In this document: positions 2,159 through 52,144 of the stretch, in pieces | How positions within the stretch are numbered: the first letter of the stretch is position 1 | Layout: every line of letters starts with the position of its first letter | NCBI GenBank assembly: GCA_964525555.1 | Contig: CAZGHN010000005.1 | Coordinates: 20,515 to 84,514, forward strand | DNA from: an uncultured bacterium | Lineage (GTDB): Bacteria; Hydrothermota; UBA3072 | Direction of reading: 5' to 3' | DNA: 64,000 bases | Notes under the pieces: model-generated | Told to the model about the DNA's origin: nothing | Database searches by the model: none | The model's input: only the letters and a program-made list of their open reading frames with translations | Translations under genes and position numbers: made by a program

Positions 2159-2268
2159 TAGCCACGGATGAACACAGATAAACACAGATTTAAAAAAAAT
2201 TTTTTTGGATTAAAGAAAAAAAATGGTTGGGAAAGGTATCCGTGATTATCCGTCGTAATCAGCGGCTA
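2159..2268. repeat. Inverted pair of 10-bp triad repeats (family A)
   Basis: tagccacggatgaacacagataaacacagat (2159-2189) faces atccgtgattatccgtcgtaatcagcggcta (2238-2268) across an A/T-rich spacer. Confidence 0.85.
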
Positions 2269-2305
2269 TTATATGTTTTATGTTGTTTTTGTTTAGAGGT
2301 TTGAC

Positions 2306-3910
2306 GTGTTAATAGGTTCTCTTTTGTTTTTACAAATCTTTTGTGTTTTTGACGTTATTAATCCTAAGTCTATCGAAAAAGGAATGAAAGGTATAGCGTT
2401 AAGTACCTTTGAAGAAAATAAAATAGATACAATAGAAGTTGAAATTTTAGGAAGAATTCCCGATTTTCAATTAGACCAGGAAGTTATAATTGCAAGATTG
2501 AAAGGTAAAGTCGTTGATGAGGCCGGTGTTATTGCGGGTATGAGCGGAAGTCCTGTTTATATAGAGGGAAAGCTGCTTGGGGCGATTTCTTTTGGATGGG
2601 CATTTGCAAAAGAACCCATTTGCGGTATTATGCCGTTTTCGGAAATGAAAAAAATGACTTTAAAAAAGACAGTTGGTTCTTCAAATCTTACACCAATAAA
2701 ACCAATTCTCACTGTTGCGGGTTTTCCTGCTTCGTCAATTTCTTGTTTGGATTCATTGCCTTTTGATTTTACTGTTTCTCAAAGCTTGTTGGGTGGCGAA
2801 ACAGAAGAGACAACTAAATTATTGCCCGGAGGGGTATGCGGCGTAACTCTTATTTCTGGGGATGGGAATATTTCGGCTATGGGTACGATAACGGAGATAA
2901 TTGAAGATACTATTTTTGCTATCGGACATTCTGCCTATGCTACAGGTTATTCGGAATTGCCTCTTTGCGGAGGAAGTGTTTTAACTTGTCTTCCTTCTTT
3001 ATATAATTCCATTAAATTGGCTACTCCGGGAAAGATAATAGGAAAAGTAATATTCGATGGATCTGCAGGAATAAAAGCTGTAATTGGAAATGAACCCCCA
3101 ATGATTGATTGTAAAATTAAGATTGGAGATCTTCAGAAAAGATATAGAGTTACTTCTGAGGTAAGTTTATTCCCTGCTATTCCTCCTTTTCTTTTGTTCT
3201 CAAACTGGATTGAAGAGATGGGGCAATATGAGAGTTCTACTGTAAGAGGAAAACTAAGTATATGGACTAATGAGGGGGAAATTCTGGTTCCTTGTGCTAT
3301 TAGCGGAGTTGAAATTCAAAGGGATTTATATCAATGGGTAAAAGAGCCTTTAATTGCAATACAGAGAAACAGATTTGAGGGCGTACAGATAGATTCTGTT
3401 TTGGTTAGTTTGTCTAGTAAACCGGAAATAAGAGAATATTTTGTTAAGAATTTGATTGTTGGAAAGAATAAATTTAAATTGGATGATATGATTAAAATTA
3501 ATGTAGAATTGAGCAGATATCGTAAAAACGATACTACAGTCAGTTTTAATTTTAAAGCTCCGGATAACCCATGTGAGTTAATTTTCAGAGTCTCAGGTAG
3601 AGATGAATATATCAGTTACGAACTCGATCGAGCACCACTTAATTTCCAGTTTGATTATTTTCAGGAGTGGAAAGATTTCTTAAATTCTTTACCTGCTCCG
3701 AATACTCTTATTTTATCTGTTTATAAAAAAGGATCTTCTTTAAATACAGATGCCGGTGAATTTAAAAATCCTCCCCCAAGTCTTAAAGTGGTAATGGAAA
3801 ATGATAAAAGAAACATTTATGGCGATTTATATTTTATAGAGGAAAAGAAAATAATATTCGATGGTCCTCTTAACGGAGAAAGTTCTAAAGAAGTTGAAGT
3901 AAGGAGGTAG
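2306..3910 (+). CDS. SpoIVB/peptidase S55 domain protein, secreted
   Basis: GVIAGMSGSPVYIEGKLLGA catalytic Ser motif; N-terminal hydrophobic signal; GTG start. Confidence 0.85.
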   Translation: MLIGSLLFLQIFCVFDVINPKSIEKGMKGIALSTFEENKIDTIEVEILGRIPDFQLDQEVIIARLKGKVVDEAGVIAGMSGSPVYIEGKLLGAISFGWAFAKEPICGIMPFSEMKKMTLKKTVGSSNLTPIKPILTVAGFPASSISCLDSLPFDFTVSQSLLGGETEETTKLLPGGVCGVTLISGDGNISAMGTITEIIEDTIFAIGHSAYATGYSELPLCGGSVLTCLPSLYNSIKLATPGKIIGKVIFDGSAGIKAVIGNEPPMIDCKIKIGDLQKRYRVTSEVSLFPAIPPFLLFSNWIEEMGQYESSTVRGKLSIWTNEGEILVPCAISGVEIQRDLYQWVKEPLIAIQRNRFEGVQIDSVLVSLSSKPEIREYFVKNLIVGKNKFKLDDMIKINVELSRYRKNDTTVSFNFKAPDNPCELIFRVSGRDEYISYELDRAPLNFQFDYFQEWKDFLNSLPAPNTLILSVYKKGSSLNTDAGEFKNPPPSLKVVMENDKRNIYGDLYFIEEKKIIFDGPLNGESSKEVEVRR

Positions 3911-3911
3911 A

Positions 3912-5810
3912 ATGCTATTATTTCTGATTTCGTTTGCTTACTTATGGGTTTACGAAGGGGATTCTCTTTATAAAGGTTTATCTGAAGGTTCTGTTATTAC
4001 AAAAGATTCGGTTTTCTTGGGAAATAGATTAGAAGAGTTTTCCTGGGAGAGCAGTGGGTTTGTTTCTAATATAATAAAAATAGATAAAGATATTTATTTT
4101 AGTATATCTGATGCAGGTTTGGTTTTAAGGTTGCAAAACGGAGAAAAGGTAGATACTATTTTTAATCGTGAAGGGAGTTTTATTTCTTTGGGGAAAAAGG
4201 GTTCCGCTATTGTAGTGGGAGTATCTCCGGAGGGAAAGATGTTTTTCGTAAAAGGTTCAAAAATTGTAGATTCTTTAACTGTACCTGCAGATAACATTTA
4301 TTGCATGTTTGAATTTGCCGGTAATTTTTTGATTGGTACTGGTCCTGAAGGTATAGTTTATAAGCTAGTAAACAATAAAGAATTTAAGGAATATTACAAA
4401 ACGGAAACTTCTTCTGTTACTCGTAGTGTGATAAAAGGTAAGGAGTTATTTTTAGGTACGAGCAATCCGGGTGTTGTTTATAAAATAGAGGAAAATAATA
4501 CTGGAAGAATTTATTATGATCCTGGTTTTGAGGAAATAAATGGTATCGGATACGTTGGGGATACCTTATGTATTTCGGGATTATTATTAAAAGAGATTGA
4601 ATCTCTCGGAGGTATTAAGTTTTATCTAAAAAATAGAGAGTATGAGGTTTATAGGGGAACTCCTATTTTATGCGGAGAGGAATCAAATGGTAAGTTTTAT
4701 GCAGGAGAATCCGAGGATGGACAGATTGGGGAATTTCATCAGAATGATTTTAGAATATTTGTCGATTTGGATGAATCTAAGATAACTTCATTGAAAAATA
4801 TTGACGGGGATTTATGGATTGGAACAGGATATCCGGCAAAGATTTATAAATTGACTTCGAAGAAATCAAAAGAAGCAACGTATACTTCCTCTGTTATAAA
4901 AGGAGGCGTTTCGGTTATTTGGGGTAATCTCGATTACGAAGGAGAGGGAGATATTAGTCTTTTTATAAGAGGAGGAAAAAAGAAAGAAGTTGATTCTTCA
5001 TGGAGTAGATGGGAAAATATTGATAATCGTATTAAAATAGAAGAACCGTTTATTCAATGGAAGGCAATTCTAAAAGGCGATAAGACATATCTAAAAGGGG
5101 TTAAGATTTCTTACGGAAGACAGAATTCGCCACCCCGGATAAAAAAAATAGAGGTTTTACCACCAAAAATAGGTACTGGTCAGCTTGACGAAGGTACTGG
5201 TATGGCGAGACCTATACCTCCCGAAGAAAGAGGTCGACTTACAAAGATGGGATTTAAAATCCCGGAGGATGCCTATATCATTGGCGAGGGAGTACGATGT
5301 ATATATTGGGAGGCAATTGACGCAGATAATGATAGATTGGTATTCGATATTTTTGTATCCAGAGATGATAAAAACTGGGATAAGGAGGAAGAAAATATTT
5401 TAAATAACAGTTATTTTCTTAATACTTTTGCTTATCCTGATGGTATTTATCATATTAAGATAATAGCTCGTGATGATTTAGATCAGGATTATCCTCTTAA
5501 ATCAGAGGAAAAGACTTCATTTCTTATCGATCAGACTCCTCCGATTGTTAAAGGAATTGAAAAAAGATACGAAAGGGATAGTATTGAAGTATCGGGATAT
5601 GCGACAGATGAGCTTTCAACTATTGTAAGCGTTCTTTACAGTACTTCGGAGATAAAAAAACTACAATGGAAAAGAGCTACTGCAGCGGATGGTTTATTTG
5701 ATGAGAAAGAAGAAAAGTTTCTTTTTAAGGTAGGTAAAAAAGAGAAATATGGGGCAATCAGAGTTGTTGACAGAAGTAGTAATAGTAAGGTTGTTAGGAT
5801 AGAATTTTAG
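3912..5810 (+). CDS. Secreted beta-propeller/Ig-like protein partnered with the S55 peptidase
   Basis: Repeated GTG.(P)G..YK blade motifs; W.A.DADND and PDG.Y..KI.A.D C-terminal Ig-like segment; 1 bp gap to upstream gene. Confidence 0.65.
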   Translation: MLLFLISFAYLWVYEGDSLYKGLSEGSVITKDSVFLGNRLEEFSWESSGFVSNIIKIDKDIYFSISDAGLVLRLQNGEKVDTIFNREGSFISLGKKGSAIVVGVSPEGKMFFVKGSKIVDSLTVPADNIYCMFEFAGNFLIGTGPEGIVYKLVNNKEFKEYYKTETSSVTRSVIKGKELFLGTSNPGVVYKIEENNTGRIYYDPGFEEINGIGYVGDTLCISGLLLKEIESLGGIKFYLKNREYEVYRGTPILCGEESNGKFYAGESEDGQIGEFHQNDFRIFVDLDESKITSLKNIDGDLWIGTGYPAKIYKLTSKKSKEATYTSSVIKGGVSVIWGNLDYEGEGDISLFIRGGKKKEVDSSWSRWENIDNRIKIEEPFIQWKAILKGDKTYLKGVKISYGRQNSPPRIKKIEVLPPKIGTGQLDEGTGMARPIPPEERGRLTKMGFKIPEDAYIIGEGVRCIYWEAIDADNDRLVFDIFVSRDDKNWDKEEENILNNSYFLNTFAYPDGIYHIKIIARDDLDQDYPLKSEEKTSFLIDQTPPIVKGIEKRYERDSIEVSGYATDELSTIVSVLYSTSEIKKLQWKRATAADGLFDEKEEKFLFKVGKKEKYGAIRVVDRSSNSKVVRIEF

Positions 5811-5843
5811 AAAATTAAATATCGAAATGGAAAATTTTAAAAT

Positions 5844-5929
5844 AGAAGTCAGAAGCCAGGAGTCAGAATACAGAATCCTATCCCAACCCAAAAACTATTG
5901 TCTCACACAAAGACACAGAGAGCACAAAG
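5844..5929 (+). repeat. Intergenic repeat mosaic (7-mer AGTCAGA run plus CACAGAGA triad)
   Basis: agaagtcagaagccaggagtcagaatacagaat then ctcacacaaagacacagagagcacaaag. Confidence 0.75.
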
Positions 5930-5994
5930 CCCCTTCACACAACCCAGAAAATTCATTTTGTTGTTACTAAATCCCAATATTTTATTTTACGTCT

Positions 5995-6558
5995 ATGGGG
6001 AAATTTATCTTTAAGTACAGATCCTTTTTACCCATTCCTTATTTTTTATTTTTGTTATTTGTTATAGAATTTAACTGCTTTACTTTCCTTGTTGGATGTT
6101 TAATAGTACTTTTAGGGCTTCTTATACGTTTCTTTTCCCAGGGATTTGCGGGTGATTGGATGAGAGGAAGTACCGTGTCTGCTTCCTATATGCTTGATGA
6201 AGGCGTCTATAGTATTGTTCGCAATCCTTTGTATCTAGGGAATTTTTTTATCGGTTTCGGTTTTACTTTGGCTTCTAATTTTTTTCTCATTTTTCTTTTG
6301 CCTTTCTACTCACTTGTTTTCTTCTTGTATTACTATTTAATTGTCAGGGAAGAAGAGAGTTATCTTGAGGGGAAATTTGGCGAAAGGTTTATTCAGTATC
6401 GCAAAAGCACGCCAGCATTCTTTCCGAATTTTAAGAGTTGGAAGAAAGGTCAGTTTTTGGGCAGAAATGCTTTGCGTATGGAGAAGAGTACTTATTTGAC
6501 CGTTGCTTTTATTTTTATTTTGTTTTTGATTAAATTTTTAATTTTCGAAACATATTGA
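5995..6558 (+). CDS. Isoprenylcysteine carboxylmethyltransferase/PEMT family membrane methyltransferase
   Basis: G.YS.VRNPLYLGN and EE..L..KFG..F..Y....P.F.P motifs; multiple TM segments. Confidence 0.88.
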   Translation: MGKFIFKYRSFLPIPYFLFLLFVIEFNCFTFLVGCLIVLLGLLIRFFSQGFAGDWMRGSTVSASYMLDEGVYSIVRNPLYLGNFFIGFGFTLASNFFLIFLLPFYSLVFFLYYYLIVREEESYLEGKFGERFIQYRKSTPAFFPNFKSWKKGQFLGRNALRMEKSTYLTVAFIFILFLIKFLIFETY

Positions 6559-6716
6559 ACACAAAGAACACAAAGAGCACAGAGATTACATTTAGAAAAA
6601 TTGAAAAATGGGAAAATTGGGAAATGGGTAAACCATTTTACTAATTTACAATTTTCCTGATTCGAAGAATCTACGGCCGTCGTCGGTCATCAGTCTGTTT
6701 TATACCTAAAACCTAA
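6559..6716. repeat. Intergenic repeat mosaic
   Basis: acacaaagaacacaaagagcacagag; aaattgaaaaatgggaaaattgggaaatggg with inverted partner tttactaatttacaattttcc; cggccgtcgtcggtcatcagtc. Confidence 0.7.
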
Positions 6717-6720
6717 CATG

Positions 6721-6749
6721 TTGACAATGATGTTATTTTTTTTTATAAT
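6721..6749 (+). promoter_or_regulatory. sigma70-type promoter
   Basis: TTGACA-N17-TATAAT perfect consensus upstream of the SGNH gene. Confidence 0.85.
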
Positions 6750-6821
6750 ACTTATATATTATGCAAATCCGTCACGAGATGATAATTCTAATTTTTTAAA
6801 CAAATAAGGAGGATATAACGA

Positions 6822-8111: not shown

Positions 8112-8156
8112 TTCAATAACTATTGACTAAAAAGTAAAAATAAACTGTAGATTTAT

Positions 8157-10183: not shown

Positions 10184-10231
10184 AATATTAACAGGATTAG
10201 AGATTGAAATGTGAAATCCAAACATAGCCTC

Positions 10232-10426
10232 TAGTCGCAAGTCACCAGTCATTAGTCATTATATAGGTATTGGATACCGGGTACCAAATTCCGGAAGTAA
10301 ACTTCAATACCTACATGTTCTACATGTGAAAAATTGGTTGGTATGTAGGGTTTTTAAACAACTTTATTCTTTCCTTTGTGTCTATGTGCTCTTTGTGCGA
10401 GATTAATTTTTTTGGGGTAGGGTGGT
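10232..10426. repeat. Intergenic repeat mosaic
   Basis: tagtcgcaagtcaccagtcattagtcatt (7-mer), ctacatgttctacatgtg (9-mer), G-rich+ttttaaacaac linker, ctttgtgtctatgtgctctttgtgcgaga. Confidence 0.7.
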
Positions 10427-10506
10427 AGCCTTGACAAGCTTTGAAAATGTGTTACATATAACAAAAAATTTGTCAAAAATTTAATAATTCTAAAGGAGGA
10501 ATTGTT

Positions 10507-12654: not shown

Positions 12655-12663
12655 AAAAAAATA

Positions 12664-12962
12664 GGCCACTAAGGCACCAAGGCACTAAGGTAATATTGTG
12701 ATATAAAAAAATCTCTGTGCCTTTGTGGTTCTGTTTTTAATCAAAATAATAAATGGGGTGTGTGGTGTGATTTGTGATATTAGTGCTATTTGTTGTTCCT
12801 CATGGTTTTTTGGAGAAGTAGGAGTTTTAAACAACACAAATATATTTTTTTGTTCTCTGTGTGTTTGTTTTTTCTCTGTGATCTCTGTGGTTAAATTAGT
12901 TTTGATGGTGGGTGATGGGTTTTAAACAACATCATTTTTTCTTTGTGTCCTTTGTGGTTCAA
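12664..12962. repeat. Intergenic repeat mosaic (five triad blocks, two linkers)
   Basis: ggccactaaggcaccaaggcactaag with inverted ctctgtgcctttgtgg; atttgtgatattagtgctatttgttg; ctctgtgatctctgtggttaa; ctttgtgtcctttgtggttcaa. Confidence 0.8.
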
Positions 12963-12990
12963 TTCTTTATTTTTAAGGCAAGAAACCTCC

Positions 12991-13040: not shown

Positions 13041-16000
13041 ATGAAAAGTTTTTACTTATTGATTAGTTTAATTGTCTGTTTGTTTGATCCGGTTTTTGTT
13101 TTTGCGGGTGAAAGTACAGAGCGTGTTGTGTCCGATTCCTGGTTAAATTCAGCGATGCGTAATATAGAGAAAAAAGAGTATGAACCGTCGTTACAGGAGT
13201 TAAATTACAGAGGCGAAAGTTTCACTCATCCTAAAATTCATCTTGCTAACAGAGCAAATAGTCTACGAGTGTATTTCGACGAGAACGGAATAGAACTTAT
13301 ACCGAGAGTTATTTCAGAAGAAGAAAAATGGAATTTAAAAATCAAATCGATCGAAGTTACGGACGGAAAAGATAGAAAGATTTTTAGCGATTTGGATGTT
13401 GTTATTGATGGGGATAATATTGTATGCACCGGCGATGGTATTGAAATTGTTTATGCGAATTCTAAAAACGGCATCCAACAAAGTATTTCTATACAGGAAG
13501 GGATAAAAGCAGAGAGAGTAAATTTTATTTTCAAAGCAGAAAATCTGGGTATTACTTCAGGAGGAAACAGATTTGTACTGAATAGTGGAAAGCAGGAAAT
13601 TATATACACGGTTGACAGAATCGAAGATGCTGAAGGGAAAGAGGTATCATATTTATTATCGAATGCGAAAGATAAGTTAAAGATTTCGTTGGACTACGTA
13701 AAGATGGTTTATCCGATAATAATTACTGCTAATATCACTTCAAATAGTCCATCTGCTGAAGATTTAATTGTATCAACGTCTACAAAAGATAGAGATATTT
13801 CCGAAACTCCTGACTGGACAGTGAACGTCATAGGCGGCCAATACATCTGTGCTTCCTCCGCCGGAGATGTAAATGGTGATGGTTATTCAGATGTTATTGT
13901 CGGTTCTTGGACTTATTCCCATGATGGAGGGGCTTTTGTGTTTTATGGAAGTCCCTCAGGTTTGGATACAATTCCTGCCTGGACAGCAGAACCCAATCCG
14001 CAAGCAGAAGGTGCGTATTTCGGCTGGTCCGTCTCCGGATCAGGGGATGTAAACGGAGACGGATATTCGGATGTGATTGTAGGTGCTTGTAGGTCTGACT
14101 CTGGAGAGACCGATGAAGGGAGGGCTTATGTATATTATGGAGATTCCTCGGGCCTTTCCAGCTCGGCTGACCGGATTTATGAATCTAATGAGGCACACGC
14201 GCGGTTCGGCAGTTCCGTTTCCTCTGCTGGAGATGTGAACGGAGACGGGTATTCGGATGTAATTGTGGGTGCTCCAGGTGTCTCCGGCCAACCAGGGCTC
14301 CAGGGAAGAGTCTTTGTGTATTATGGAAGTGCTTCCGGGCTTCCCGCCTCATCAGCCAGCTGGACTGTTGTTGATCCCGATGGAGGGATATATTTTGGTT
14401 GCTCCGTCTCCTCTGCTGGAGATGTGAACGGAGACGGCTACTCGGAAGTAATTATAGGTGACAATCAGCACTCCAATGGGGAAAGTTATGAGGGAAAGGC
14501 ATACGTATATCATGGTAATTCTTCCGGTCTTTCTACATCTCCCGACTGGCAGTTAGAAAGCAATGAAGTAGGCGCAGAATTCGGGACCTCGGTCTCCGGA
14601 GCGGGAGACGTAAACGGAGATGGGTATTCGGACGTGATTGTTGGCGCGGGTCAAGCCGGAGTAGTAGATGGGGGGAAGGCGTATATCTATTCTGGGAGTT
14701 TCGCCGGGCTTCTTACGTCGGCCAGCTGGACAGCAGAATGCGATTCGTCCATGGCGGGGTTCGGGGTATCCGTGTCAGGAGCGGGAGATGTAAACGGAGA
14801 CGGATACTCGGATGTAATTGTGGGCGCTCCCGGGTACAATAATGATAATGGCATGATATTTGTGTACAATGGTGGTCCCTTAGGTCTTCCTCTTTCTCCG
14901 GATTGGACTGCCGAACCTATTCCTTTGGTCCAATATGTTGGCGGTTCAGTCTCAACAGCGGGGGATTTAAACGGAGACGGGTATTCGGATTTGATTGTAG
15001 GCGCTCGCAATAACGCATTCGTATATCATGGAAGTCCCTCGGGACCCTCTACCGCATCTGACTGGGCGAAAGAAGGCGAACAGGCGAACGCATACTTTGG
15101 TTGCTCGGTTTCCACGGCGGGAGATGTAAACGGTGATGGATATTCGGATGTAGTTATCGGCGCTTATGGATACGACAATGGGCAAAATGGTGAAGGTAGA
15201 GCATATGTTTATCATGGAAGTTCGTTACTGCCTTCCGGCTCCCCTAACTGGACAGTTGAGTCCAATCAGGCAGACGCGAGTTTAGGTGTTTCCGTCTCCT
15301 CTGCGGGAGATGTAAACGGAGACGGGTACTCGGATGTAATCGTGGGCGCATCTGGTTATGATGATGGACAAATGGATGAAGGCGCGGCATTTGTTTATAA
15401 CGGAAGTCCCTCGGGGCTTTCCGGCTCACCCAGCTGGACTGCTGCCGAGACGGATCAGGCGTTTGCCTGGTTCGGGGGTTCCGTTTCCACAGCGGGGGAT
15501 GTGAACGGGGACGGATATTCAGATGTGATTGTGGGTGCTCGGGGGTACGATAATGCAGGAGCAAATAGAGGGGTTGCATTTGTTTACCAAGGAAGTCCCG
15601 GTGGTTTGTCCTCCTCATCGGACTGGACGGCACAGTCCGATCAGGCAGGCTCAGAGTTCGGAATCTCCGTCGCAGGAGCTGGGGATGTAAACGGAGACGG
15701 ATATTCGGATGTGATTGTCGGTGCTCATCTTTACGATAAGGGAGAAAGTGATGAAGGCGCTGTGTTTGTTTATAACGGAAGTTCCTCCGGGCTCGATAGT
15801 TTAACCAACTGGACTGCAGAATCGAATCAGGCGGATTCAAGATTCGGTGCGTCCGTCGCAGGAGCTGGGGATGTAAACGGAGACGGGTATTCGGATGTGA
15901 TTGTGGGCGCTTATTATTACTCCAATGGACAAACAAATGAAGGAAGGGCTTTTGTATATCACGGAGGTTCCTCCGGTCTTTCCGGTTCTCCCAACTGGAC

Positions 16001-17048
16001 CGCCGAGTCCAATCAGGCGGGTGCTTACTTCGGCACGTCTGTCTCCACGGCAGGAGATGTAAACGGAGACAGATACTCGGATGTTATTATCGGTGCCAAT
16101 TATTACACCAATGGAGAGTCTTATGAAGGTCGCGCATTTCTCTATACTGGAAATTTCTTCGGGCTCTCTATTGCCCCTGAATGGACCGCTGAGTCCAATC
16201 AGGCGAGTGCTTTCTTTGGCAGTTCGGTCTCCACGGCAGGGGATGTAAACGGAGACGGGTATTCGGATGTAATTGTGGGAGCTTATGATTATGATAATGG
16301 ACAAACGAACGAGGGCGGAGCATTTTTGTACTTCGGCAATGAAGGAGGTCTCTCTCTCGTTCCGACACAATCCACGCTGGACGGGTCACATCCTGTGCAG
16401 CTTGGCAATTTAACCGGGACCTCAGGCGTCCAGCTTAATTTGCTAGGAAGAACACCGCAAGGCAGGGGAAAAGTAAAATTGCAGTGGGAAGTTAAAGAAC
16501 TCGGTCAACTATTCGATGAAATATTCGACGGAGATTCTATTTCCGAAAGCGCTTCATGGTATGATACCGGCGTAAACGGAATAGAGATTTCAGAAGATGT
16601 AACCGGACTAAGTAGCGGAACTGCCTACCACTGGAGAGTAAGATTATTGTATGACCCGGTGTATTACGAGGGTTCATTACATTCCAGATGGTTGTCGATA
16701 GGTCCGAACGGATGGAATGAGACTGATTTTATTACAACAGACCTTTCCGGGATCGAAGATAATCCTGGCGAAATTGTGAATTTGCAGCTCAGCGTATTTC
16801 CGTCTATCTCAACAAATATCTTCAATATAAGGTTTTATGTTTCGGAAGAAGAAGCGAAGGAAGATATAAGTTTAAAGGTATACAACAAGGCCGGAATAAT
16901 GGTAAAAAGTCTTTTCAAGGGTAAGAAACCCGCAGGAGCTCACATGATAACCTTTAACGGGGACAAACTGCCGAATGATATATTCTTTATTTCTCTTAAA
17001 AAAGGAAAAGGAAAAAATCCTGTAAGGAAGGTTATTCTTCTGAGATAA
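13041..17048 (+). CDS. Large secreted FG-GAP (integrin-alpha-like) repeat protein with C-terminal sorting-like domain
   Basis: Signal peptide; 14 copies of FG.SV..AGDVNGDGYSD(V/L)I(V/I)GA; C-terminal PS....F.I...LKVYN..G..V..L...K..GIFF..L..RKVILLR. Confidence 0.92.
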   Translation: MKSFYLLISLIVCLFDPVFVFAGESTERVVSDSWLNSAMRNIEKKEYEPSLQELNYRGESFTHPKIHLANRANSLRVYFDENGIELIPRVISEEEKWNLKIKSIEVTDGKDRKIFSDLDVVIDGDNIVCTGDGIEIVYANSKNGIQQSISIQEGIKAERVNFIFKAENLGITSGGNRFVLNSGKQEIIYTVDRIEDAEGKEVSYLLSNAKDKLKISLDYVKMVYPIIITANITSNSPSAEDLIVSTSTKDRDISETPDWTVNVIGGQYICASSAGDVNGDGYSDVIVGSWTYSHDGGAFVFYGSPSGLDTIPAWTAEPNPQAEGAYFGWSVSGSGDVNGDGYSDVIVGACRSDSGETDEGRAYVYYGDSSGLSSSADRIYESNEAHARFGSSVSSAGDVNGDGYSDVIVGAPGVSGQPGLQGRVFVYYGSASGLPASSASWTVVDPDGGIYFGCSVSSAGDVNGDGYSEVIIGDNQHSNGESYEGKAYVYHGNSSGLSTSPDWQLESNEVGAEFGTSVSGAGDVNGDGYSDVIVGAGQAGVVDGGKAYIYSGSFAGLLTSASWTAECDSSMAGFGVSVSGAGDVNGDGYSDVIVGAPGYNNDNGMIFVYNGGPLGLPLSPDWTAEPIPLVQYVGGSVSTAGDLNGDGYSDLIVGARNNAFVYHGSPSGPSTASDWAKEGEQANAYFGCSVSTAGDVNGDGYSDVVIGAYGYDNGQNGEGRAYVYHGSSLLPSGSPNWTVESNQADASLGVSVSSAGDVNGDGYSDVIVGASGYDDGQMDEGAAFVYNGSPSGLSGSPSWTAAETDQAFAWFGGSVSTAGDVNGDGYSDVIVGARGYDNAGANRGVAFVYQGSPGGLSSSSDWTAQSDQAGSEFGISVAGAGDVNGDGYSDVIVGAHLYDKGESDEGAVFVYNGSSSGLDSLTNWTAESNQADSRFGASVAGAGDVNGDGYSDVIVGAYYYSNGQTNEGRAFVYHGGSSGLSGSPNWTAESNQAGAYFGTSVSTAGDVNGDRYSDVIIGANYYTNGESYEGRAFLYTGNFFGLSIAPEWTAESNQASAFFGSSVSTAGDVNGDGYSDVIVGAYDYDNGQTNEGGAFLYFGNEGGLSLVPTQSTLDGSHPVQLGNLTGTSGVQLNLLGRTPQGRGKVKLQWEVKELGQLFDEIFDGDSISESASWYDTGVNGIEISEDVTGLSSGTAYHWRVRLLYDPVYYEGSLHSRWLSIGPNGWNETDFITTDLSGIEDNPGEIVNLQLSVFPSISTNIFNIRFYVSEEEAKEDISLKVYNKAGIMVKSLFKGKKPAGAHMITFNGDKLPNDIFFISLKKGKGKNPVRKVILLR

Positions 17049-17050
17049 TT

Positions 17051-17161
17051 AGATAGTAGATAGGGAGTAGAGAGTAGTTAAGTAGTTGGTTTGTTGGGTT
17101 GTGGGTTCGTTGGGTCGTTTTTTTAACTACCTAACGACTTAACCACCTAACGTCCTAACTA
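17051..17161. repeat. Intergenic repeat mosaic (7- and 8-mer runs)
   Basis: agatagtagatagggagtagagagtag; gttggtttgttgggttgtgggttcgttgggtcgtt; taactacctaacgacttaaccacctaacgtcctaac. Confidence 0.75.
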
Positions 17162-18249: not shown

Positions 18250-18513
18250 ATTTTTCTCACACAGAGCGCACGGAGACACAGAGTTTTTTGTTTTTTACCA
18301 AATCCCAACCCCAAAATCCTAAATCCTGAGTCAGGACGCAGATAAACGCAGATTTTATAGATTTGAAAAAAAAATTCTTTTTCTTTTTTTTCATAATTGT
18401 TTCTATCTTGTAATTTATGGTTTTATGAATTTTGTCAATGGCGTTAACCGTCCAAAGTCCAGAGTCCAATGTCCAAAGTCAAGTTTTTTTGTGCTATCTG
18501 TGTCTCTGTGGTG
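18250..18513. repeat. Intergenic repeat mosaic containing a ~100-bp block repeated inverted at 24441-24540
   Basis: ctcacacagagcgcacggagacacagag...acgcagataaacgcagat; gtccaaagtccagagtccaatgtccaaagtc; tctgtgtctctgtggtgaa. Confidence 0.85.
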
Positions 18514-20103: not shown

Positions 20104-20130
20104 CGTAGAATACTTGTCTCGCCATTGATT

Positions 20131-20418
20131 AAGGTTTCAAGGATTCAAGGTTTCTAGGTTTCAAGTAAAAAAGAAAAAGCTACAATTTCTACATGTGGAA
20201 AAAGAAAGCTGTTGGCTGACATCCGATTGCTAACGGCAAAAAATCTCTGTGCTCTCTGTGACTATTATTCGGGGTATAGTATTTAGGGTATAGGGTATAG
20301 TAGGAAGATATTTGTGCAATTTGTGCTATTTGTTGTTTTTCTTAGTTTTGGTGGAGTTGAGGGTTTTAAGACAAAAATATTTTTTTTATCCGTGTGTATC
20401 TGTTTTAATCCGGGGCTA
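20131..20418. repeat. Intergenic repeat mosaic (about seven motif blocks)
   Basis: aaggtttcaaggattcaaggtttctaggtttcaag; ctacaatttctacatgtg; gctgac...gctaacggc; ctctgtgctctctgtg; gggtatagggtatag; atttgtgcaatttgtgctatttg; atccgtgtgtatctgttttaatccggggcta. Confidence 0.8.
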
Positions 20419-20481
20419 ATTATTTGGGTGGGGAGGTGTTGACAACGTATTAATCCCATATAACTTTAAAATGTAAAAATC

Positions 20482-21684: not shown

Positions 21685-21707
21685 TTCTTTTGAGAAGAAT
21701 CAGTACA

Positions 21708-21835
21708 GTTGGATAGTTAAATTGTTGAATGGTAATATAGATCCTTCGGATCAGTTGAATGGTTGAATTGTTGAGTAGTTGAATAGCAAAAAAACAAAAA
21801 ATAAATTAGTGTTTATCCGTGTTAATCCGTGGCTA
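21708..21835. repeat. Intergenic repeat mosaic (8-mer GTTGAAT(A/G) run with embedded mini-hairpin, plus family A triad)
   Basis: gttgaatggtaatatagatccttcggatcagttgaatggttgaattgttgagtagttgaatag; attagtgtttatccgtgttaatccgtggcta. Confidence 0.85.
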
Positions 21836-24364: not shown

Positions 24365-24603
24365 CTTAGTTTCTTGGTGCCTTTGTGACTACTCTTTAGG
24401 ATTTCGGATTTAGGGCTTGAGATTTAAACAACAAAAATATTCTGCGTTCGTCTGCGTCATAACTCAAGATTTAGAATTTTGGGGTTGGGATTCCGTAAAC
24501 AAAAAAACTCTGTGTCTCCGTGGCTCTGTGCGAGGAAAATTTGGGGTTGGTGGGAGGATAGTTTTTAAAGCAAAAATATTTTTCTATCCTTGTAGATCTG
24601 TGG
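24365..24603. repeat. Intergenic repeat mosaic between divergent promoters
   Basis: cttagtttcttggtgcctttgtg; aggatttcggatttagggcttgagattt; 24441-24540 is an inverted copy of 18250-18352. Confidence 0.85.
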
Positions 24604-32157: not shown

Positions 32158-32358
32158 AGCTGACGACTTACCGTCGAGGGCCAACGGTAAAAAAAATAGG
32201 CTATTGATGTGATTTTTTGTTGGAATAAGCTCTTAGCTTCTCGCCTTTGGCAGTTAGAAAAAAAATATTAAAACTTTGTGGTCTTTGTGTGAGTTAAAAA
32301 AAGCTGACCGCCGACAGCTGACGGCAAAAAATCTCTGTGTTCTCTGTGTCTCTGTGGC
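32158..32358. repeat. Intergenic repeat mosaic between convergent genes
   Basis: gctgacgacttaccgtcgagggccaacgg; ctttgtggtctttgtgtgag; gctgaccgccgacagctgacggc-aaaaaat-ctctgtgttctctgtgtctctgtggc. Confidence 0.8.
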
Positions 32359-33232: not shown

Positions 33233-33280
33233 AAGTCAAATAAAATATTAAAAAGCAAAAAGCAAAATGATATTTTTATT

Positions 33281-33394
33281 GGCCACAGATTTGCACAGAT
33301 ATGCACGGATTTCCCATCCCTACCCCATTTTATATTTTTTTTGAAATTATAAAAGTATTTTTGATCTGTGTTCATCCGTGTTTATCCGTGGCTA
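33281..33394. repeat. Inverted pair of 10-bp triad repeats (family A)
   Basis: ggccacagatttgcacagatatgcacggat (33281-33310) faces atctgtgttcatccgtgtttatccgtggcta (33364-33394). Confidence 0.88.
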
Positions 33395-33403
33395 TTTCTT
33401 TTT

Positions 33404-34513
33404 TCATACCTTAAAATGAAACAAAAGAACATCACCATCTTTTACCTCATAATCTCTACCTTCTATTCTTATTTTTCCGTGTTCCTTTATGTGTGCTTTG
33501 GAGTCATATTCGAATAAATCGGTACACTGGAAAACTTCCGCTTTAATGAATCCTTTTTCGAAATCAGTATGAATAATACCTGCAGCAGCAGGTGTTTTTA
33601 TTCCTTTTTTAAACATCCAGGCACGGACTTCAGATCCGTTTTCTGTAAAGAAAGTTTCTAATCCTAAAAGATTAAATGCAGTTTTTATAAGACGGTTAAG
33701 AGCTAGATCCTCTAAACCCAACATTTCCATAAATTCTTTTCTTTCCTCTTCTGATTTTATTGCTGCTATTTCCTGTTCATCCTTACCGCAAATTTCAATT
33801 ACAGATGCATTTTCCTTTTTCGCATAACTCTTCACCGATTCAGTAAATTTATTTTCACTATTTATGCTATTTTCGTCGATATTGCAGACATATAAAACTT
33901 TCTTTGTAGTAAGAAGATTTAAATCCCTTATCGATTTTTCCTCTTCGTCCTTTAGACCTATATTTTTTACAGGTATTCCTTTTTTTAGTTCCTGCTGCAA
34001 TTTTTCTAGTAAAGCTACTTTAGTCTGAGCGTCCTTTTTTAGCTTTTGGTCCTGGCTTTTGAGCAGTTTTGTGTTTTTTTGAAGGCTTTTTTCAACGGCC
34101 CCGAGATCGGCTAATATCAGTTCCATATTTATTACTTCGATATCGCGAATTGGATCTATATTTTCGTAAGGATGAGAGACATCCGGATCTTCGAAACATC
34201 TAACTATATGAATTATAACATTAACTTCTCTGATATGACTCAAGAATTGATTTCCCAGGCCTTCTCCTTTTGAAGCTCCTTCAACAAGACCTGCTATATC
34301 TACAAATTCAACTGTTGCCGGTATTCTTTTTTCTATATTTAATATATCTGCTATTTTAGTTAGCCTTTCGTCGGGCACTTCGACCATTCCCAGGTTTGGT
34401 TCGATAGTACAGAACGGATAGTTCTCTGCCTTTACCGAAAGACAGGTTAGTGCAGAGAATATAGTAGACTTACCAACGTTGGGAAGTCCGATAATTCCGC
34501 AATTCAAACTCAT
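33404..34513 (-). CDS. ychF: Redox-regulated ATPase YchF
   Basis: GIIGLPNVGKST, NYPFCTIEPN, DIAGLV.GASKGEGLGNQFL, AG.IHTDFEKGFI; start at MSLNCG after GGGAG. Confidence 0.97.
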   Translation of the reverse strand: MSLNCGIIGLPNVGKSTIFSALTCLSVKAENYPFCTIEPNLGMVEVPDERLTKIADILNIEKRIPATVEFVDIAGLVEGASKGEGLGNQFLSHIREVNVIIHIVRCFEDPDVSHPYENIDPIRDIEVINMELILADLGAVEKSLQKNTKLLKSQDQKLKKDAQTKVALLEKLQQELKKGIPVKNIGLKDEEEKSIRDLNLLTTKKVLYVCNIDENSINSENKFTESVKSYAKKENASVIEICGKDEQEIAAIKSEEERKEFMEMLGLEDLALNRLIKTAFNLLGLETFFTENGSEVRAWMFKKGIKTPAAAGIIHTDFEKGFIKAEVFQCTDLFEYDSKAHIKEHGKIRIEGRDYEVKDGDVLLFHFKV

Positions 34514-34567
34514 AATATTTCTCCCAGTAATATTATCATTTTTTTGTAAATTGTCAAACGGGGAATT

Positions 34568-34805
34568 AACCACAAAGGCACAAAGACACGAAGAATAAAA
34601 AAAAAGTTAAATGGTCAAATTGTTGAATGGTTAAATCGGCATCCCCCATACCACCAAATTATTAGCCACTGATTTACACGGATATACACTGATTTTTTTA
34701 TTGTTTTTTTTACTTGGACACTGGAATCCTCGAACCCTTGAGCCGTAAATTTAATGAACAACAAATTATTATTTTATCTGTGATTATCCGGGTTGATCCT
34801 TGGCT
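34568..34805. repeat. Intergenic repeat mosaic with family A inverted pair
   Basis: aaccacaaaggcacaaagacacgaag; gttaaatggtcaaattgttgaatggttaaat; tagccactgatttacacggatatacactgat (34663-34693) faces atctgtgattatccgggttgatccttggct (34776-34805). Confidence 0.82.
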
Positions 34806-39381: not shown

Positions 39382-39499
39382 ATTTCTTAACTTAGCTTTT
39401 AGATTTTCGCTTTTAGCCGTTAGCAAGATTTAGTTTATTGGTATATCTGTGAATCGGTAAGTTCGTTTTATTTTTTTACTAATTTACTAATTCACTCTT

Positions 39500-39827: not shown

Positions 39828-40103
39828 CTAAAGAGGTATCCATATTTGTTGTGCGGATATGATTTCGGAGTTGCCGGGTAGATTTATTTCATTTTTTGTT
39901 CTGGAGTAAAAAATTAAGCCTTTGTAAGATGTGAGATAATCGAAATCTTTTTTCATGAATCCTCCCTTTGATACGATAATAACGGGATTTTCGGCCCTGG
40001 ATATTATTTTAATAAAATCTTCTTCCTTTAGTCTTACAATAGCTCCTGAAGCTTTAATTGCTTTTGCAACTGCCTCATATGCTCCTGCTGCTCCATTACT
40101 CAT
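39828..40103 (-). CDS. Hypothetical protein
   Basis: AGGAGG RBS; A.AIKASGAIV motif; operon with cutA. Confidence 0.75.
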   Translation of the reverse strand: MSNGAAGAYEAVAKAIKASGAIVRLKEEDFIKIISRAENPVIIVSKGGFMKKDFDYLTSYKGLIFYSRTKNEINLPGNSEIISAQQIWIPL

Positions 40104-40268: not shown

Positions 40269-40826
40269 TTAAATGCTGATTTTTATTCCGCCTCTTATAG
40301 GAATATGAGTAAGGCTTCCGCCTTCCATAAATATAATCCCGTATCCGGTTTCGGCGAAAAATCCCATTAGTCCCATGGTGAAACTTGTTCCTGTATAAGC
40401 CAGGAAGCCGAAATCGGTCGATGAAGCGCTAATATCTAAAGCGCCAGACATACTTGCTGTAGTCGTAGTCATTTCTGCGCCTACACCGACGTAAAAAGAT
40501 GCAGGGGAAAGAGGTGGAGCGATGGAATATTCAAGTCCAAGTAGAATAAAAAGATAAGATATTTTAGTTGTAACATCCCCAAGTATTGTTTCTGCTGTTT
40601 CGGATTTCCATGTATATTCAATTGCGCCTCGTAAGCCGACCGGTAGAATAGGCGGCGAAAAAGTAGCCATGGCTCCAAAAGCCGGATAGGTCTGCATTTC
40701 TGCCCCCTCGACATTTATCTTCCACATTTCGACTCCGCCCATTGCTCCCGCTGATAAGCCGAGTACTCCGGCAGAGAGAGGTACACTTATAAGTAATAAA
40801 ACAACCAACACTGCAAACTTTTTCAT
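40269..40826 (-). CDS. Outer-membrane beta-barrel protein (8-stranded OmpA/OmpW-like)
   Basis: Signal peptide ending LSA; amphipathic strands (FYVGVG, FFAETGY, IRGGIKISI). Confidence 0.7.
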   Translation of the reverse strand: MKKFAVLVVLLLISVPLSAGVLGLSAGAMGGVEMWKINVEGAEMQTYPAFGAMATFSPPILPVGLRGAIEYTWKSETAETILGDVTTKISYLFILLGLEYSIAPPLSPASFYVGVGAEMTTTTASMSGALDISASSTDFGFLAYTGTSFTMGLMGFFAETGYGIIFMEGGSLTHIPIRGGIKISI

Positions 40827-40894
40827 ATGACCTCCTTTTTTAGTTTGCTATTATGAAATCATAATCCTTTTTGATAGGAATGTCAAGGGTTTAT

Positions 40895-40974
40895 TAGGTT
40901 TTAGGTCTTAGGTATTTGGTTTTAGTGAAGGGGTGGTGGGATTCTGAATTCTGACTCCTCACCTTCTGACTTCT
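40895..40974. repeat. Intergenic repeat mosaic (two 7-mer runs)
   Basis: ttaggttttaggtcttaggtatttggttttag; ggattctgaattctgactcctcaccttctgacttct (inverted relative of 5844-5878). Confidence 0.75.
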
Positions 40975-46147: not shown

Positions 46148-46150
46148 TTT

Positions 46151-46699
46151 TCAGACCCTTGTTCTTTCGTAAGATTCTTCTGCTGCTTTAACGTTATCTT
46201 CTTTTTTTCTGGGGACTGCATTTTTTATGGCTTTTTTAAGTGATTCTAACTTACAGAGCTTTAGTATTTTTATAACACCGCCAAGTATTGCCGTGTTTAC
46301 TATAGGTGTGGATTCGCTCCCCAAATGGTACTTTATAGCAATTTCCCTCGCCGGAACAGCGGCAACCTTGAATTTACTGTCAAAACCGAATTCTTCGGGA
46401 TTTTTTGTGGTGTTTACGATGATCCAGCCGCCTTTTTTTAATCCGTCTGTAAGTTCAATAAAACCTATAAGGGTTGGATCGAGAATAACTATATGGTCAG
46501 GTTCGTATATCTTGGATCTTTCATATACTGTATCGTCACTGATACGTAAGAAAGCTCTGACCGGGGCACCTCTTCTTTCTACTCCGTATTCAGGGAAAGC
46601 CTGTATGAATTTTCCTTCGGAAGATAGCGCTTCGGCGAGTATTTTTGTCGCGACTACAGTTCCCTGTCCGCCTCTGCCGTGAAGCCTTAATTCGAGCAT
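46151..46699 (-). CDS. porC: 2-oxoacid:ferredoxin oxidoreductase gamma subunit
   Basis: HGRGGQG, FP.YG.ERRGAPV, NTAILG. Confidence 0.9.
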   Translation of the reverse strand: MLELRLHGRGGQGTVVATKILAEALSSEGKFIQAFPEYGVERRGAPVRAFLRISDDTVYERSKIYEPDHIVILDPTLIGFIELTDGLKKGGWIIVNTTKNPEEFGFDSKFKVAAVPAREIAIKYHLGSESTPIVNTAILGGVIKILKLCKLESLKKAIKNAVPRKKEDNVKAAEESYERTRV

Positions 46700-46703
46700 T
46701 TGA

Positions 46704-47687: not shown

Positions 47688-47878
47688 CAGCCAGTCTCCT
47701 TTATCTATTCTATGTAATGAGTAGTAAAAGTCAATCCCCGCTGATCTTCTATGCAAAAAGGAGTAATAAGGAAAGATTTTTAACAAATCAAATATATTCT
47801 TTTCTTTTTTGTTCTATGTGTGTTTTTCATTTCTCTGTGTCCTCTGTGGTAAAAAATGGGGAGGTGGGGGATACGGTA

Positions 47879-47906
47879 TTGACAAAGTCTAAATCACCGA
47901 TATAAT
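47879..47906 (+). promoter_or_regulatory. sigma70-type promoter for acs (divergent from fabH), preceded by a repeat block at 47805-47853
   Basis: TTGACA-N16-TATAAT. Confidence 0.8.
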
Positions 47907-47981
47907 AAAATTACACGGTTCTTTTATATTAAAGTTTTCCAGATTTAACCAAATTATCGTAAAATTTAAAGGGAGGAGAAA

Positions 47982-49946: not shown

Positions 49947-49975
49947 AAGATTATGAACCTAAAAGGAGGTTTTTG

Positions 49976-51205: not shown

Positions 51206-51229
51206 GAGTTTTTTCGATATATAAAATAT

Positions 51230-51262
51230 AAAAGAGGAGCAGAATTAACCTGCTCCTCTTTT
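51230..51262. terminator. Bidirectional intrinsic terminator
   Basis: aaaagaggagcag-N7-ctgctcctctttt perfect 13-bp inverted repeat between convergent genes. Confidence 0.88.
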
Positions 51263-51281
51263 CTTGAAAGGAAGGGGAATT

Positions 51282-51671
51282 TTATTTTTCCGATTTACTC
51301 TGGATTTTATAGTAGGCTACAAGAGCAGCCCCTATGAAAGTCAAAACAAAACCGGCCATTGTGAAGAAATATATACCCTCGTCTCTCATTTTATATGCGA
51401 AGAACGAACCTCCAATCACAAGGCCAAGACCGATTCCAAGATAGATCAATCCTTTTCTCAGGTAATCAAGCGGTGTAGCGGGTTGGGGTACCGGTTCCGG
51501 TGGCAGTTCCACTCCGGCTTCTATTGCTTTTAACCTTTCTTCCCTTTTTAATTTTTCTTTTTTATAATCTGTTGAAAAGACAAAGTAAAAAACGATAAAG
51601 ATTACAAAGATGGGGAATAATATAGCAACAAGCGGTATTACTAGACCTATTAGACCGGTTAGATTTCCCAT
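51282..51671 (-). CDS. DUF6249-like membrane protein
   Basis: TM, then ERLKAIEAG, then L..GLI..G.GLG and two TM; AGGAGG RBS. Confidence 0.75.
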   Translation of the reverse strand: MGNLTGLIGLVIPLVAILFPIFVIFIVFYFVFSTDYKKEKLKREERLKAIEAGVELPPEPVPQPATPLDYLRKGLIYLGIGLGLVIGGSFFAYKMRDEGIYFFTMAGFVLTFIGAALVAYYKIQSKSEK

Positions 51672-51685
51672 AATAGTCCTCCTTT

Positions 51686-51802
51686 TTATTTGTAATAGGA
51701 TACGGTTTCTGGGTTATAAATATCATAATTACCTAAATCATTTGATGGGTAGAATTTCTCTTCTAAGTGTTTGAATCTATATTTAAATTTATACTTTAAC
51801 AT
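51686..51802 (-). CDS. Putative 38-aa small protein (not in the ORF track)
   Basis: GGAGG-N7-ATG; MLKYKFKYRFKHLEEKFYPSNDLGNYDIYNPETVSYYK*; stop abuts the RBS of the DUF6249-like gene. Confidence 0.5.
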   Translation of the reverse strand: MLKYKFKYRFKHLEEKFYPSNDLGNYDIYNPETVSYYK

Positions 51803-51826
51803 TTTTAACCTCCGTTTATTCAGTTT

Positions 51827-51853
51827 GACGCAGGATAGCGAAAATTTGTTTCA
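51827..51853 (-). promoter_or_regulatory. Putative ECF sigma promoter
   Basis: Minus strand TGAAAC-N17-CGTC(AAA), resembling SigW/RpoE-type consensus. Confidence 0.5.
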
Positions 51854-51865
51854 AAAAAACAATAA

Positions 51866-52144
51866 ATTTACCATAGAGGGCACAAAGAAACAAAGAACAC
51901 AAAAAGACCACAGAGAAAAAAAGTTATTTTGTTTTTTTCAGCCCATCCCCAAAAAATTATTCTCACACAAAGACACGAAGACACAAAGTTTATTTTTTCT
52001 GTTATTTCTACTGCTAACTACTCCCTTCTCCCTACTCTCTATTTTTGTTTTTGACTGATGCCTGGCGACTAGTGACTGATGACTGGTTGATTATTCAACT
52101 GATCCGAAGGATCTATATTACTATTCAACGATCCAACCACCTAG
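51866..52144. repeat. Intergenic repeat mosaic
   Basis: accatagagggcacaaagaaacaaagaacacaaaaagaccacagag; ctcacacaaagacacgaagacacaaag; ctactgctaactactccc; tgactgatgcctggcgactagtgactgatgactg; inverted copy of 21724-21760 at 52093-52129. Confidence 0.82.

Follow-up and report, generated by a model that had tools for sequence, protein, structure and literature searches.

We analyzed a 64-kb stretch of DNA (the window; G000:C5:20515-84514) in a genome, G000, of 2.82 Mb in 47 contigs with 36% G+C, and in particular the mosaics of short tandem repeats that fill gaps between its genes. The genes themselves are ordinary housekeeping genes (for a pyrophosphatase, FabF, RuvB, acetyl-CoA synthetase, and YchF), together with genes for surface proteins sorted by the type IX secretion system. 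An earlier reading of the same letters (the original prediction) had listed 17 intergenic sites made of 7- to 10-bp units, commonly repeated in tandem as dyads (two units) or triads (three). Tandem Repeats Finder (TRF), pattern matching, and direct reading gave the following features, in window coordinates; a unit that resembles a miniature inverted-repeat transposable element (MITE) is called MITE-like.

2163 to 2189, plus strand: triad of CAC units with a 10-bp period (CACGGAT/CACAGAT, three copies), 12 nt past the L27 stop codon; TRF, pattern match, and reading.
About 2239 to 2270: degenerate inverted partner of the triad at 2163; the minus strand folds at -29.6 kcal/mol (z -4.6).
5844 to 5929, plus strand: AGAAGTC array (5844 to 5868), C-rich block, and CACAAAG-type triad (5906 to 5929); TRF and reading.
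6557 to 6671, plus strand: CACAAAG triad (6560 to 6584), AAATGGGA-type array (6595 to 6632), and small palindrome GATTCGAAGAATC (6659 to 6671).
10228 to 10437: AGTC+NNN array, CTACATGT dyad (10311 to 10327), degenerate minus-strand CAC triad (about 10371 to 10399), and G-rich block ending at a -35 box; reading, with a TRF row at 10247.
12667 to 12963: plus-strand triad (12667 to 12689), then four minus-strand dyads or triads (12713, 12770, 12874, and 12941) with GTTTTAAACAAC linkers, giving the pattern "+----".
17085 to 17159: foldback of a GTTGGGTC-type array, a T-run, and an inverted TAACGACC-type array; TRF; the plus strand folds at -37.8 kcal/mol (z -3.5).
18260 to 18512: plus-strand triad (18260 to 18283), CCAAATC array (18298 to 18326), GTCCAAA array (18450 to 18480), and minus-strand dyad (from 18496).
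20127 to 20333: AAGGTTTC array (20127 to 20165), minus-strand CACAGAG dyad (from 20245), GGGTATA array (20272 to 20300), and ATTTGTGCA array (20310 to 20333).
21700 to 21833: GTTGAAT-type arrays flanking the small hairpin GATCCTTCGGATC (21740 to 21752), then a minus-strand 10-bp CAC triad (21805 to 21831).
24373 to 24530: minus-strand dyad (from 24373), TTTAGGA array (24395 to 24414), and minus-strand triad (24508 to 24530).
32274 to 32356, minus strand: dyad (from 32274), GCTGAC-type arrays, and triad (32333 to 32356).
33250 to 33400: complete MITE-like unit, with an AAAAAGC array, left triad (33284 to 33310), C-rich block, A/T core, and inverted right triad (33364 to 33390); its ends read TTGGC...GCTA and its folds have z scores of -6.0 and -4.7.
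34571 to 34693, plus strand: CACAAAG triad (from 34571), GTTAAATG array (34606 to 34636), and 10-bp triad (34667 to 34693).
39392 to 39496: TTAGCTT array and TTTACTAA array; TRF.
40894 to 40974: TTAGGTT array, G-rich block, and TTCTGAC array; TRF and reading.
47833 to 47851, minus strand: CACAGAG dyad, then a G-rich block and a TTGACA box; reading.
51881 to 52113, plus strand: all-plus chain of CACAAAG-type arrays (51881 to 51916; triad at 51966 to 51988), CTACTCC array, TGACTGA array, and hairpin GATCCGAAGGATC (52101 to 52113).

TRF returned 77 rows for the window, and 16 of the 17 listed sites carry one; the 17th, at 47.8 kb, is the two-unit minus-strand CACAGAG dyad. An array or CAC-type element was present in 15 of 22 gaps of at least 100 nt and in none of 10 gaps of 20 to 99 nt. 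Gap and gene boundaries here and below come from our own crude gene calls. The gene at 5995 to 6558 was missed by the caller, so that two real gaps were counted as one in this census, and the 10.3-kb gap scored zero at the census thresholds though its arrays are plain by reading. It was also true, as had been noted, that the units occur on both strands and that arrays end shortly before a TTGACA box, the latter by reading in seven gaps. The reported absence of arrays from operon-internal junctions stands within the window, but the junction occupied here by the 33.3-kb mosaic measures only 6 to 8 nt in two congeners.

Counted as words over the window, only the CAC-type units rise above chance (CACRGATRAA, 8 occurrences versus 0.56 expected; CACARAGA, 27 versus 3.15). 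Neither CTACATGT (3 versus 1.0), GTTGAATG (6 versus 2.0), AAGGTTTC (2 versus 4.15), nor GTCCAAA (5 versus 10.3) goes beyond it; the signal of these four words is in their local tandem order and genome-wide recurrence, not in sharing within the window.

Arrays were counted genome-wide, defined by a period of 6 to 12 and at least 2.5 copies, in 332 kb of intergenic and 2.49 Mb of coding DNA. Contig C15 was excluded from most counts. A 58-kb stretch is duplicated between C4:264-58312 and C15:164-58197 at 99.8% identity, and all 115 differences fall in the first ~500 bases; the copies being identical past that point, we take them for assembly redundancy that is uninformative on strain polymorphism. 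The counts were 747 arrays in intergenic DNA (2.25 per kb) and 352 in coding DNA (0.14 per kb), which makes arrays 16 times as dense in the former. Real intergenic DNA gave 726 arrays versus 33 to 49 in five dinucleotide-preserving shuffles. This confirms that the intergenic triads are real and far beyond chance. Periods of 7 (306 arrays), 8 (268), 9 (87), and 10 (60) predominate. Arrays make up 6.6% of the bases between genes; among the 774 gaps of at least 150 nt, 380 contain one or more.

The units form a limited, recurrent, and nonrandom vocabulary, as had been claimed. They fall into 123 families, the largest with 76, 63, 61, and 60 arrays. Families of at least five members account for 589 of 736 arrays, compared with 0 to 8 arrays in shuffles, where the largest family had 3 to 8 members. 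No fixed grammar of modules could be found in their succession.

Arrays are short (20 to 38 nt) and of nearly constant length, with medians of 30, 27, 26, and 28 nt for periods 7, 8, 9, and 10, respectively, and 95% are shorter than 40 nt; the median copy number is 2.8 to 4.3 and the median unit match 82%. Most frequent among the modules is the triad built from a CAC-core heptamer, either CACARAG at 8- to 9-bp spacing or CACRGAT at 10 bp. Patterns for these CAC elements gave 514 matches, 482 of them intergenic. Triad spacers follow a few patterns (1+1, 77; 1+2, 68; 3+3, 49; 2+2, 17). The 5' flank is conserved, reading TCTCA in 70 and TTAGC in 33 of 225 triads, and a T-run follows 67 of the 225. 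In ten families tested, cores carry 1.8 to 2.0 bits per position and spacers 0.3 to 0.6 bits; this unevenness, seen in all ten, identifies the unit as a short core plus a spacer at fixed phase.

These dimensions bear on the idea that the arrays arise neutrally, through replication slippage or templated repair, and are tolerated only where the reading frame is irrelevant, in the manner of the long simple-sequence repeats with 5- to 11-nt units known from other bacteria. In its favor, periods of 7, 8, and 10 dominate the gaps, whereas coding DNA is relatively richer in periods of 6, 9, and 12. Heptamers are reported to be the most frequent class of long simple repeats in many bacteria (PMC4679880 and PMC4692102), and slippage was the cause proposed by Mrazek 2007 as summarized in PMC4679880. 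However, slippage-type simple repeats are open-ended and near perfect, with freely varying copy number, while the CAC elements have three units in 229 cases and four in 7. The narrow range of array lengths, the conserved 5' flanks, and the confinement of variable positions to fixed phases also speak against slippage, as do the recurrence of the same units dozens of times and across genera (reversed-pattern controls gave 0 to 1), the strict polarity, and the copying of whole 150-nt units between loci described below. Loss of mismatch repair is not the cause of the arrays, since MutS is present in 40 of 41 genomes. As a sole cause, slippage is largely refuted, and we judge it improbable.

CACARAG triads contain no self-complementary bases, and folding was seen only for inverted pairs. 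Triads with a 10-bp period occur in pairs, one on each side of a C-rich block and an A/T core and inverted relative to each other. The resulting units span 91 to 120 nt (e.g., 33284 to 33390) and fold on either strand with z scores of -4.6 to -6.0. In 11 inverted 3+3 pairs from G000, 190 of 231 heptamer positions match between the arms versus 9 of 46 spacer positions. In 25 inverted pairs from viral contigs (see below), 516 of 525 core positions are complementary, and the 50 spacer positions include 19 Watson-Crick and 12 G-U pairs. That heptamers and not spacers correspond between arms argues for recognition of phased cores over a conserved RNA helix. In inverted repeats within gaps, G-U pairs showed no strand bias and most mismatches are transversions; selection for an RNA hairpin was rejected on these grounds.

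CAC elements point to the middle of the gap, whichever strands the flanking genes use. In tandem gaps, the first fifth holds 63 sense versus 14 antisense elements and the last two fifths hold 66 antisense versus 11 sense, and convergent and divergent gaps mirror this polarity. Gaps with both orientations read "+..-" in 38 cases versus 2 containing "-+". Solo triads in all four gene arrangements behave likewise, with 40 "+" and 10 "-" in the left third and 8 "+" and 48 "-" in the right third (Fisher P = 5e-12). When the polarity of 27 families was learned on odd-numbered contigs and tested on even-numbered ones, 119 arrays conformed and 43 violated it (82 and 32, respectively, without CAC-like families).

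The original prediction had offered, as one explanation, that gene cassettes with a preference for safe sites between transcription units left the triads behind, either as empty ends that became stacked or as footprints. Ends that stack with consistent polarity, and the filled and empty alleles reported below, are in line with such cassettes. The polarity is centered on gaps, however: across genes, the triad order "-,+" is found 55 times versus 38 for "+,-", so that the gap, not the gene, is the unit of polarity. No recurrent cargo was found between triads, where the intervening genes are ordinary single-copy genes, and no gene family recurred beside viral triad pairs among 43 phage proteins scanned. 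One small open reading frame (ORF) was examined: G000:C2:187725-188171 (minus strand) encodes a predicted membrane protein of 149 amino acids (aa), lies between inward-facing triads, and has its own TTGACA-type promoter. It matches no Pfam family and has no paralogue in the genome, again at odds with a mobile gene family. The cassette explanation thus appears very improbable, although its more general suggestion that "safe" intergenic sites are occupied by dispersed elements is supported.

Near-identical copies of the modules are dispersed in the genome. By blastn, 37% of intergenic bases match another gap. The unit at 33.25 to 33.40 kb has a counterpart on contig C8 that is ~97% identical to it over ~150 nt, and a second pair of ~150-nt units, on C3, is likewise ~97% identical; the flanks are unrelated within each pair. 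Inverted arms occur as 7 strict pairs among complete 10-bp-period units and in the 38 gaps of mixed orientation, but the triads of 193 other gaps are single and those of 85 all lie on the same strand.

Filled and empty alleles, whose comparison had been proposed, were both found among relatives, which are represented by species-level metagenome-assembled genomes. The ychF/hisJ junction was compared in 12 congeneric loci: it is empty in two (6 and 8 nt from stop to start), filled in nine, and N-masked in one further locus. The fillings differ: two loci have the 10-bp foldback unit, four have a pair of CACAGAG dyads, and three have a chain of AGAAGCC array, C-block, CACAAAG triad, and TAAATCC array. 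Upstream of apgM, the promoter is conserved in nine congeners and the mosaics differ in every species, drawn from a common vocabulary. Relatives at 88 to 90% nucleotide identity show gain, loss, and replacement of modules, and a GTTGAAT array has 3 versus 4 units between them, a change that slippage would also produce. A metagenome scan for closer strains gave a best match of at most 80% protein identity, and the pyrophosphatase gene, used as an orthologue probe, gave only distant matches (at most 58%).

Two further observations concern this junction. On the minus strand of the foldback unit, 33374 to 33346 form a promoter-like TGAACA-17-TATAAT directed toward the downstream hisJ-like gene. 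The ychF ORF as listed (33404 to 34573) begins ~20 codons early, as the alignment to the YchF model starts at residue 21 and orthologue matches have a stop inside the first residues of the listed ORF; this places the CACAAAG triad at 34571 outside the actual coding sequence.

The modules have a patchy distribution in the phylum. A two-unit pattern was found in 17 of 19 genomes of the same family (reversed controls, 0 to 1), and strict triads were found in 49 of 251 phylum genomes (reversed control, 0 of 251). By family, strict triads are present in f1 (14 of 19 genomes), f17 (6 of 8), f18 (4 of 4), f27 (5 of 11), and f7 (11 of 37) and absent from f15 (0 of 22), f10 (0 of 14), f24 (0 of 13), and f28 (0 of 12). 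Genomes with high copy numbers are G000, G064, G247, and G237, and a 10-kb sample of G064, which belongs to another family, has the same stacked heptamer arrays. Array density in G016 and G020, which lack the two-unit pattern, is 0.5 to 0.6 per 10 kb compared with 2.2 to 3.4 in array-bearing genomes, i.e., about five times lower. G008 is negative for the two-unit pattern yet has 9-bp-period triads and is not a clean negative. Triads were found in none of 20 genomes of other lineages, and the sharing of big G000 families by sampled relatives did not exceed the ~22% chance rate of our crude assignment, so that the distribution given here rests on the pattern searches with reversed controls.

CAC patterns also occur in viral contigs, in at least 119 and at least 120 cases for two patterns. 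Their neighbors include genes for portal, terminase, tape-measure, and baseplate proteins, which indicates that several triad-bearing viral contigs are real phages. The first set of viral loci has a median G+C content of 0.58, with some loci up to 0.70; because families of the phylum reach at least 52% G+C, we do not claim spread beyond the phylum. The viral triads are inverted pairs 15 to 91 nt apart, often 8 to 25 nt past a stop codon, with an A-rich tract upstream (0.36 versus 0.175 background) and a T-rich one downstream (0.37 versus 0.18). The hairpins that they form are highly stable (z -7 to -10), and the pairs look like two-way terminators. Two viral contigs (L405:2014-2161 and L415:1165-1315) have in common a conserved G+C-rich core with a GGCCTTCGGCC hairpin, placed between inverted CACAGAT triads; these 150-nt units fold at -82 to -97 kcal/mol (z about -9) and have no Rfam match. 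A third, L413:3620-3920, has a run of ~thirty 10-mers of the GCCACAGATA type followed by a hairpin, and the 10-bp unit can thus expand into a long array, as slippage would predict.

We favor, with a probability of roughly 0.55, the reading that the gaps house miniature, noncoding, modular repeats of a diverse family, similar to MITEs or foldback elements, that insert and nest in intergenic DNA. A module would be a block of ~27 to 30 nt with three to four phased copies of an invariant 4- to 7-nt core and free spacers between them. Modules would join into foldback (inverted-arm) units of ~90 to 150 nt, such as that at 33.25 to 33.40 kb, and these would be copied to new intergenic sites with a preference for tight junctions and for the middles of resident units, so that gaps would grow by nested insertion. 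Because a foldback unit reads "+ ... -" in either insertion orientation, nested insertion into the middle of a unit could give rise to the observed polarity: left arms would pile up at the left of the gap and right arms at the right. Arrays would later change their number of units, decay, or lose a partner. The phased cores may act as sites bound by a trans-acting protein, transposase-like or another DNA-binding protein, that moves or copies the units, and the units may secondarily act as terminators or insulators at gene ends. A functional role may coexist with mobility.

Several results weigh against mobility. No mobilizing enzyme was found among rve-type transposases, Y1_Tnp proteins, and multicopy insertion sequences, the candidates examined; other transposase families were not searched. 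Transposases of the rve type have no match in G000 and occur in 5 of 41 relatives, and a genome self-blast revealed no multicopy insertion sequence. Y1_Tnp proteins, the REP-associated tyrosine transposases (RAYT; PF01797), are present in 29 of 41 genomes in a manner unrelated to array content: they are missing from the array-bearing G006 and G014 and present in the array-poor G016 and G020. RAYT was rejected as the mobilizer on account of this lack of codistribution. Target-site duplications could not be read at any of the copies compared, which have A/T-rich flanks and fuzzy boundaries. CAC triads are mostly solo (one per gap in 193 gaps, with a further 85 gaps holding several in a single orientation), and few solo triads have a recognizable reverse partner unit ahead of them (35 reverse units). 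Module order is combinatorial, the commonest of 212 adjacent pairs being seen 8 times. Two positional findings fit selection equally well: the nearest CAC element starts at most 10 nt from a stop codon in 37 of 297 cases, and the position of triad plus G-block upstream of the apgM promoter is kept in 8 of 9 orthologues read.

Selection on each gap is the basis of a different account, in which the modules are mainly functional cis-elements, either polar terminators or insulators or arrays bound by an abundant DNA- or RNA-binding protein, and copying is secondary. In two 20-kb scans covering window positions 1 to 40000, terminator-like sites of a hairpin plus T-run numbered 16 and 23, versus 16.4 expected, and few lay at gene ends. 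The genome may not rely on classical intrinsic terminators, and, with such sites no commoner than in shuffles, gene ends would need another signal. The most frequent distance bin for array starts is 0 to 10 nt past stop codons. Polarity follows the nearest gene edge rather than the gene strand, as would be expected of a barrier to incoming transcription. Cores are conserved while spacers are free; upstream of apgM, position is kept while sequence turns over; and the phage pairs lie after stop codons between A-rich and T-rich flanks and fold strongly.

On the other hand, a single factor cannot bind all of the more than 120 unit families, whose cores differ, and divergent gaps, too, are filled (2.15 arrays per kb). 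The arrays do not form the G+C-rich stem-loop plus T-run expected of intrinsic terminators at gene 3' ends; solo arrays do not fold, and a T-run follows fewer than a third of the CAC triads. The absence of G-U strand bias and the predominance of transversions in inverted arms argue against a conserved RNA structure, and two congeners have no element at all at the ychF/hisJ junction. Gaps lack a general C>G or other compositional polarity, and a general role in Rho loading is therefore not supported. We consider this account unlikely.

A more specific version of the reading by mobile repeats takes in the phage data. The CAC-heptamer triad foldback would be an undescribed class of mobile element common to several bacterial families and their phages, whose arms are three phased (8-, 9-, or 10-bp) putative protein-binding sites; it would serve as a portable two-way terminator or insulator and seed look-alike tandem-array modules that nest until gaps are full. 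We advance this version tentatively, with the odds against it. In a bolder form, an enzyme that appends short repeats from a template would write the arrays de novo.

Other sequence features accompany the arrays. Small palindromes with TTCG-type loops (GATCCTTCGGATC and GATTCGAAGAATC) lie between flanking arrays at 21740 to 21752, 52101 to 52113, and 6659 to 6671, and a related 12-mer, ATTCGAAGAATC, has 39 intergenic occurrences genome-wide. G-rich blocks (GGGGTAGGGTGG, GGGTGGGGAGGTG, and GGGGAGGTGGGGG) are found directly 5' of TTGACA boxes (10422 to 10437, 20440 to 20455, 47856 to 47872, and others). Genome-wide, G-blocks peak 6 to 30 nt upstream of the -35 box; of 614 promoter-like sites, about 76 have one there, and this small share led us to reject the G-block as a general promoter element. 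Among the genes, that at 13041 to 17048 encodes a 1335-aa protein with 186-bp (62-residue) tandem repeats at 15491 to 16306 and a match to an XAC2610-related domain; the 62-residue repeats resemble those of the FG-GAP/VCBS type. Two small proteins encoded beside cutA (39828 to 40103, 91 aa; 40269 to 40826, 185 aa) have no Pfam match.

Rfam 15 gave no match in the window at the gathering score and, on the phage units, only sub-threshold matches to generic long hairpins (microRNA precursors). No description of such elements was found in the literature searched, which left most subscription journals and supplements outside its scope. Closest in behavior are MITEs and the repetitive extragenic palindromic (REP) sequences with their mosaics, the bacterial interspersed mosaic elements (BIME), and the modules differ from each in at least one defining feature. 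Bacterial MITEs include the Correia elements, RUP, and Nezha. Like MITEs, the modules are short, noncoding, and intergenic, with inverted arms in complete units (33.25 to 33.40 kb), and they have many dispersed copies with unrelated flanks, are present or absent between relatives, and are patchy across lineages. Unlike in MITEs, the arm consists of three short cores in phase, separated by free spacers, rather than a unique inverted repeat, most modules are solo, and the module families, more than 120 in number, combine freely; target-site duplications could not be made out in the copies compared, and no parent insertion sequence or transposase was found among the candidates examined.

REP and BIME sequences of enterobacteria and pseudomonads are located at the ends of genes and in gaps of convergent gene pairs, with a presumed role in protein binding. 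The comparison with them, also made in the original prediction, stands as an analogy, both being extragenic, high-copy mosaics of a few short motifs in alternating orientation, and fails as membership: REP units are imperfect palindromes of 20 to 40 nt that fold alone, whereas the CACARAG triad has no self-complementarity, and RAYT-type genes do not covary with the arrays. REPs are not known to have the tandem-triad build. Arms with tandem subrepeats or several phased transposase-binding sites are found in eukaryotic foldback transposons and in the multisite ends of Mu, Tn7, and IS21. The arms described here are alike in consisting of tandem phased subrepeats, a kinship by analogy only; in contrast to Mu, Tn7, and IS21, no rve-type transposase was found in G000, and no autonomous partner is known.

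Intergenic tandem heptamers of sporadic phylogenetic distribution have been published as the cyanobacterial short tandemly repeated repetitive (STRR) sequences, the TAACTGA repeats of Beggiatoaceae (PMC4679880), and the GGGAATC/GGGGAYT repeats of Xanthomonas and Nostoc (PMC4692102). These repeats, like ours, vary between close relatives and have no known function. The TGACTGA unit at 52052 to 52085 is one base from the Beggiatoaceae TAACTGA (PMC4679880). The published heptamer repeats of Beggiatoaceae, cyanobacteria, and Xanthomonas comprise one or a few units per genome in open-ended arrays, with up to 43 copies (PMC4679880), in contrast to the more than 100 families, fixed short length, strict polarity, and foldback assembly seen here. 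TAACTGA repeats are described as sitting just upstream of start codons (PMC4679880), whereas the present arrays are excluded from the last 40 to 60 nt ahead of genes.

About half of the gaps of at least 150 nt in this genome carry such modules, yet the modules are described by no Rfam family and by no paper in the literature searched. The modules break metagenome assemblies, as is evident from the many matches at contig ends, and confound intergenic annotation. If the modules are functional, they could explain how a lineage that has no evident hairpin terminators ends and insulates its transcripts. Mobile modules would represent a new kind of bacterial nonautonomous element with multisite arms, whose patchy spread would provide a phyletic handle on the enzyme.

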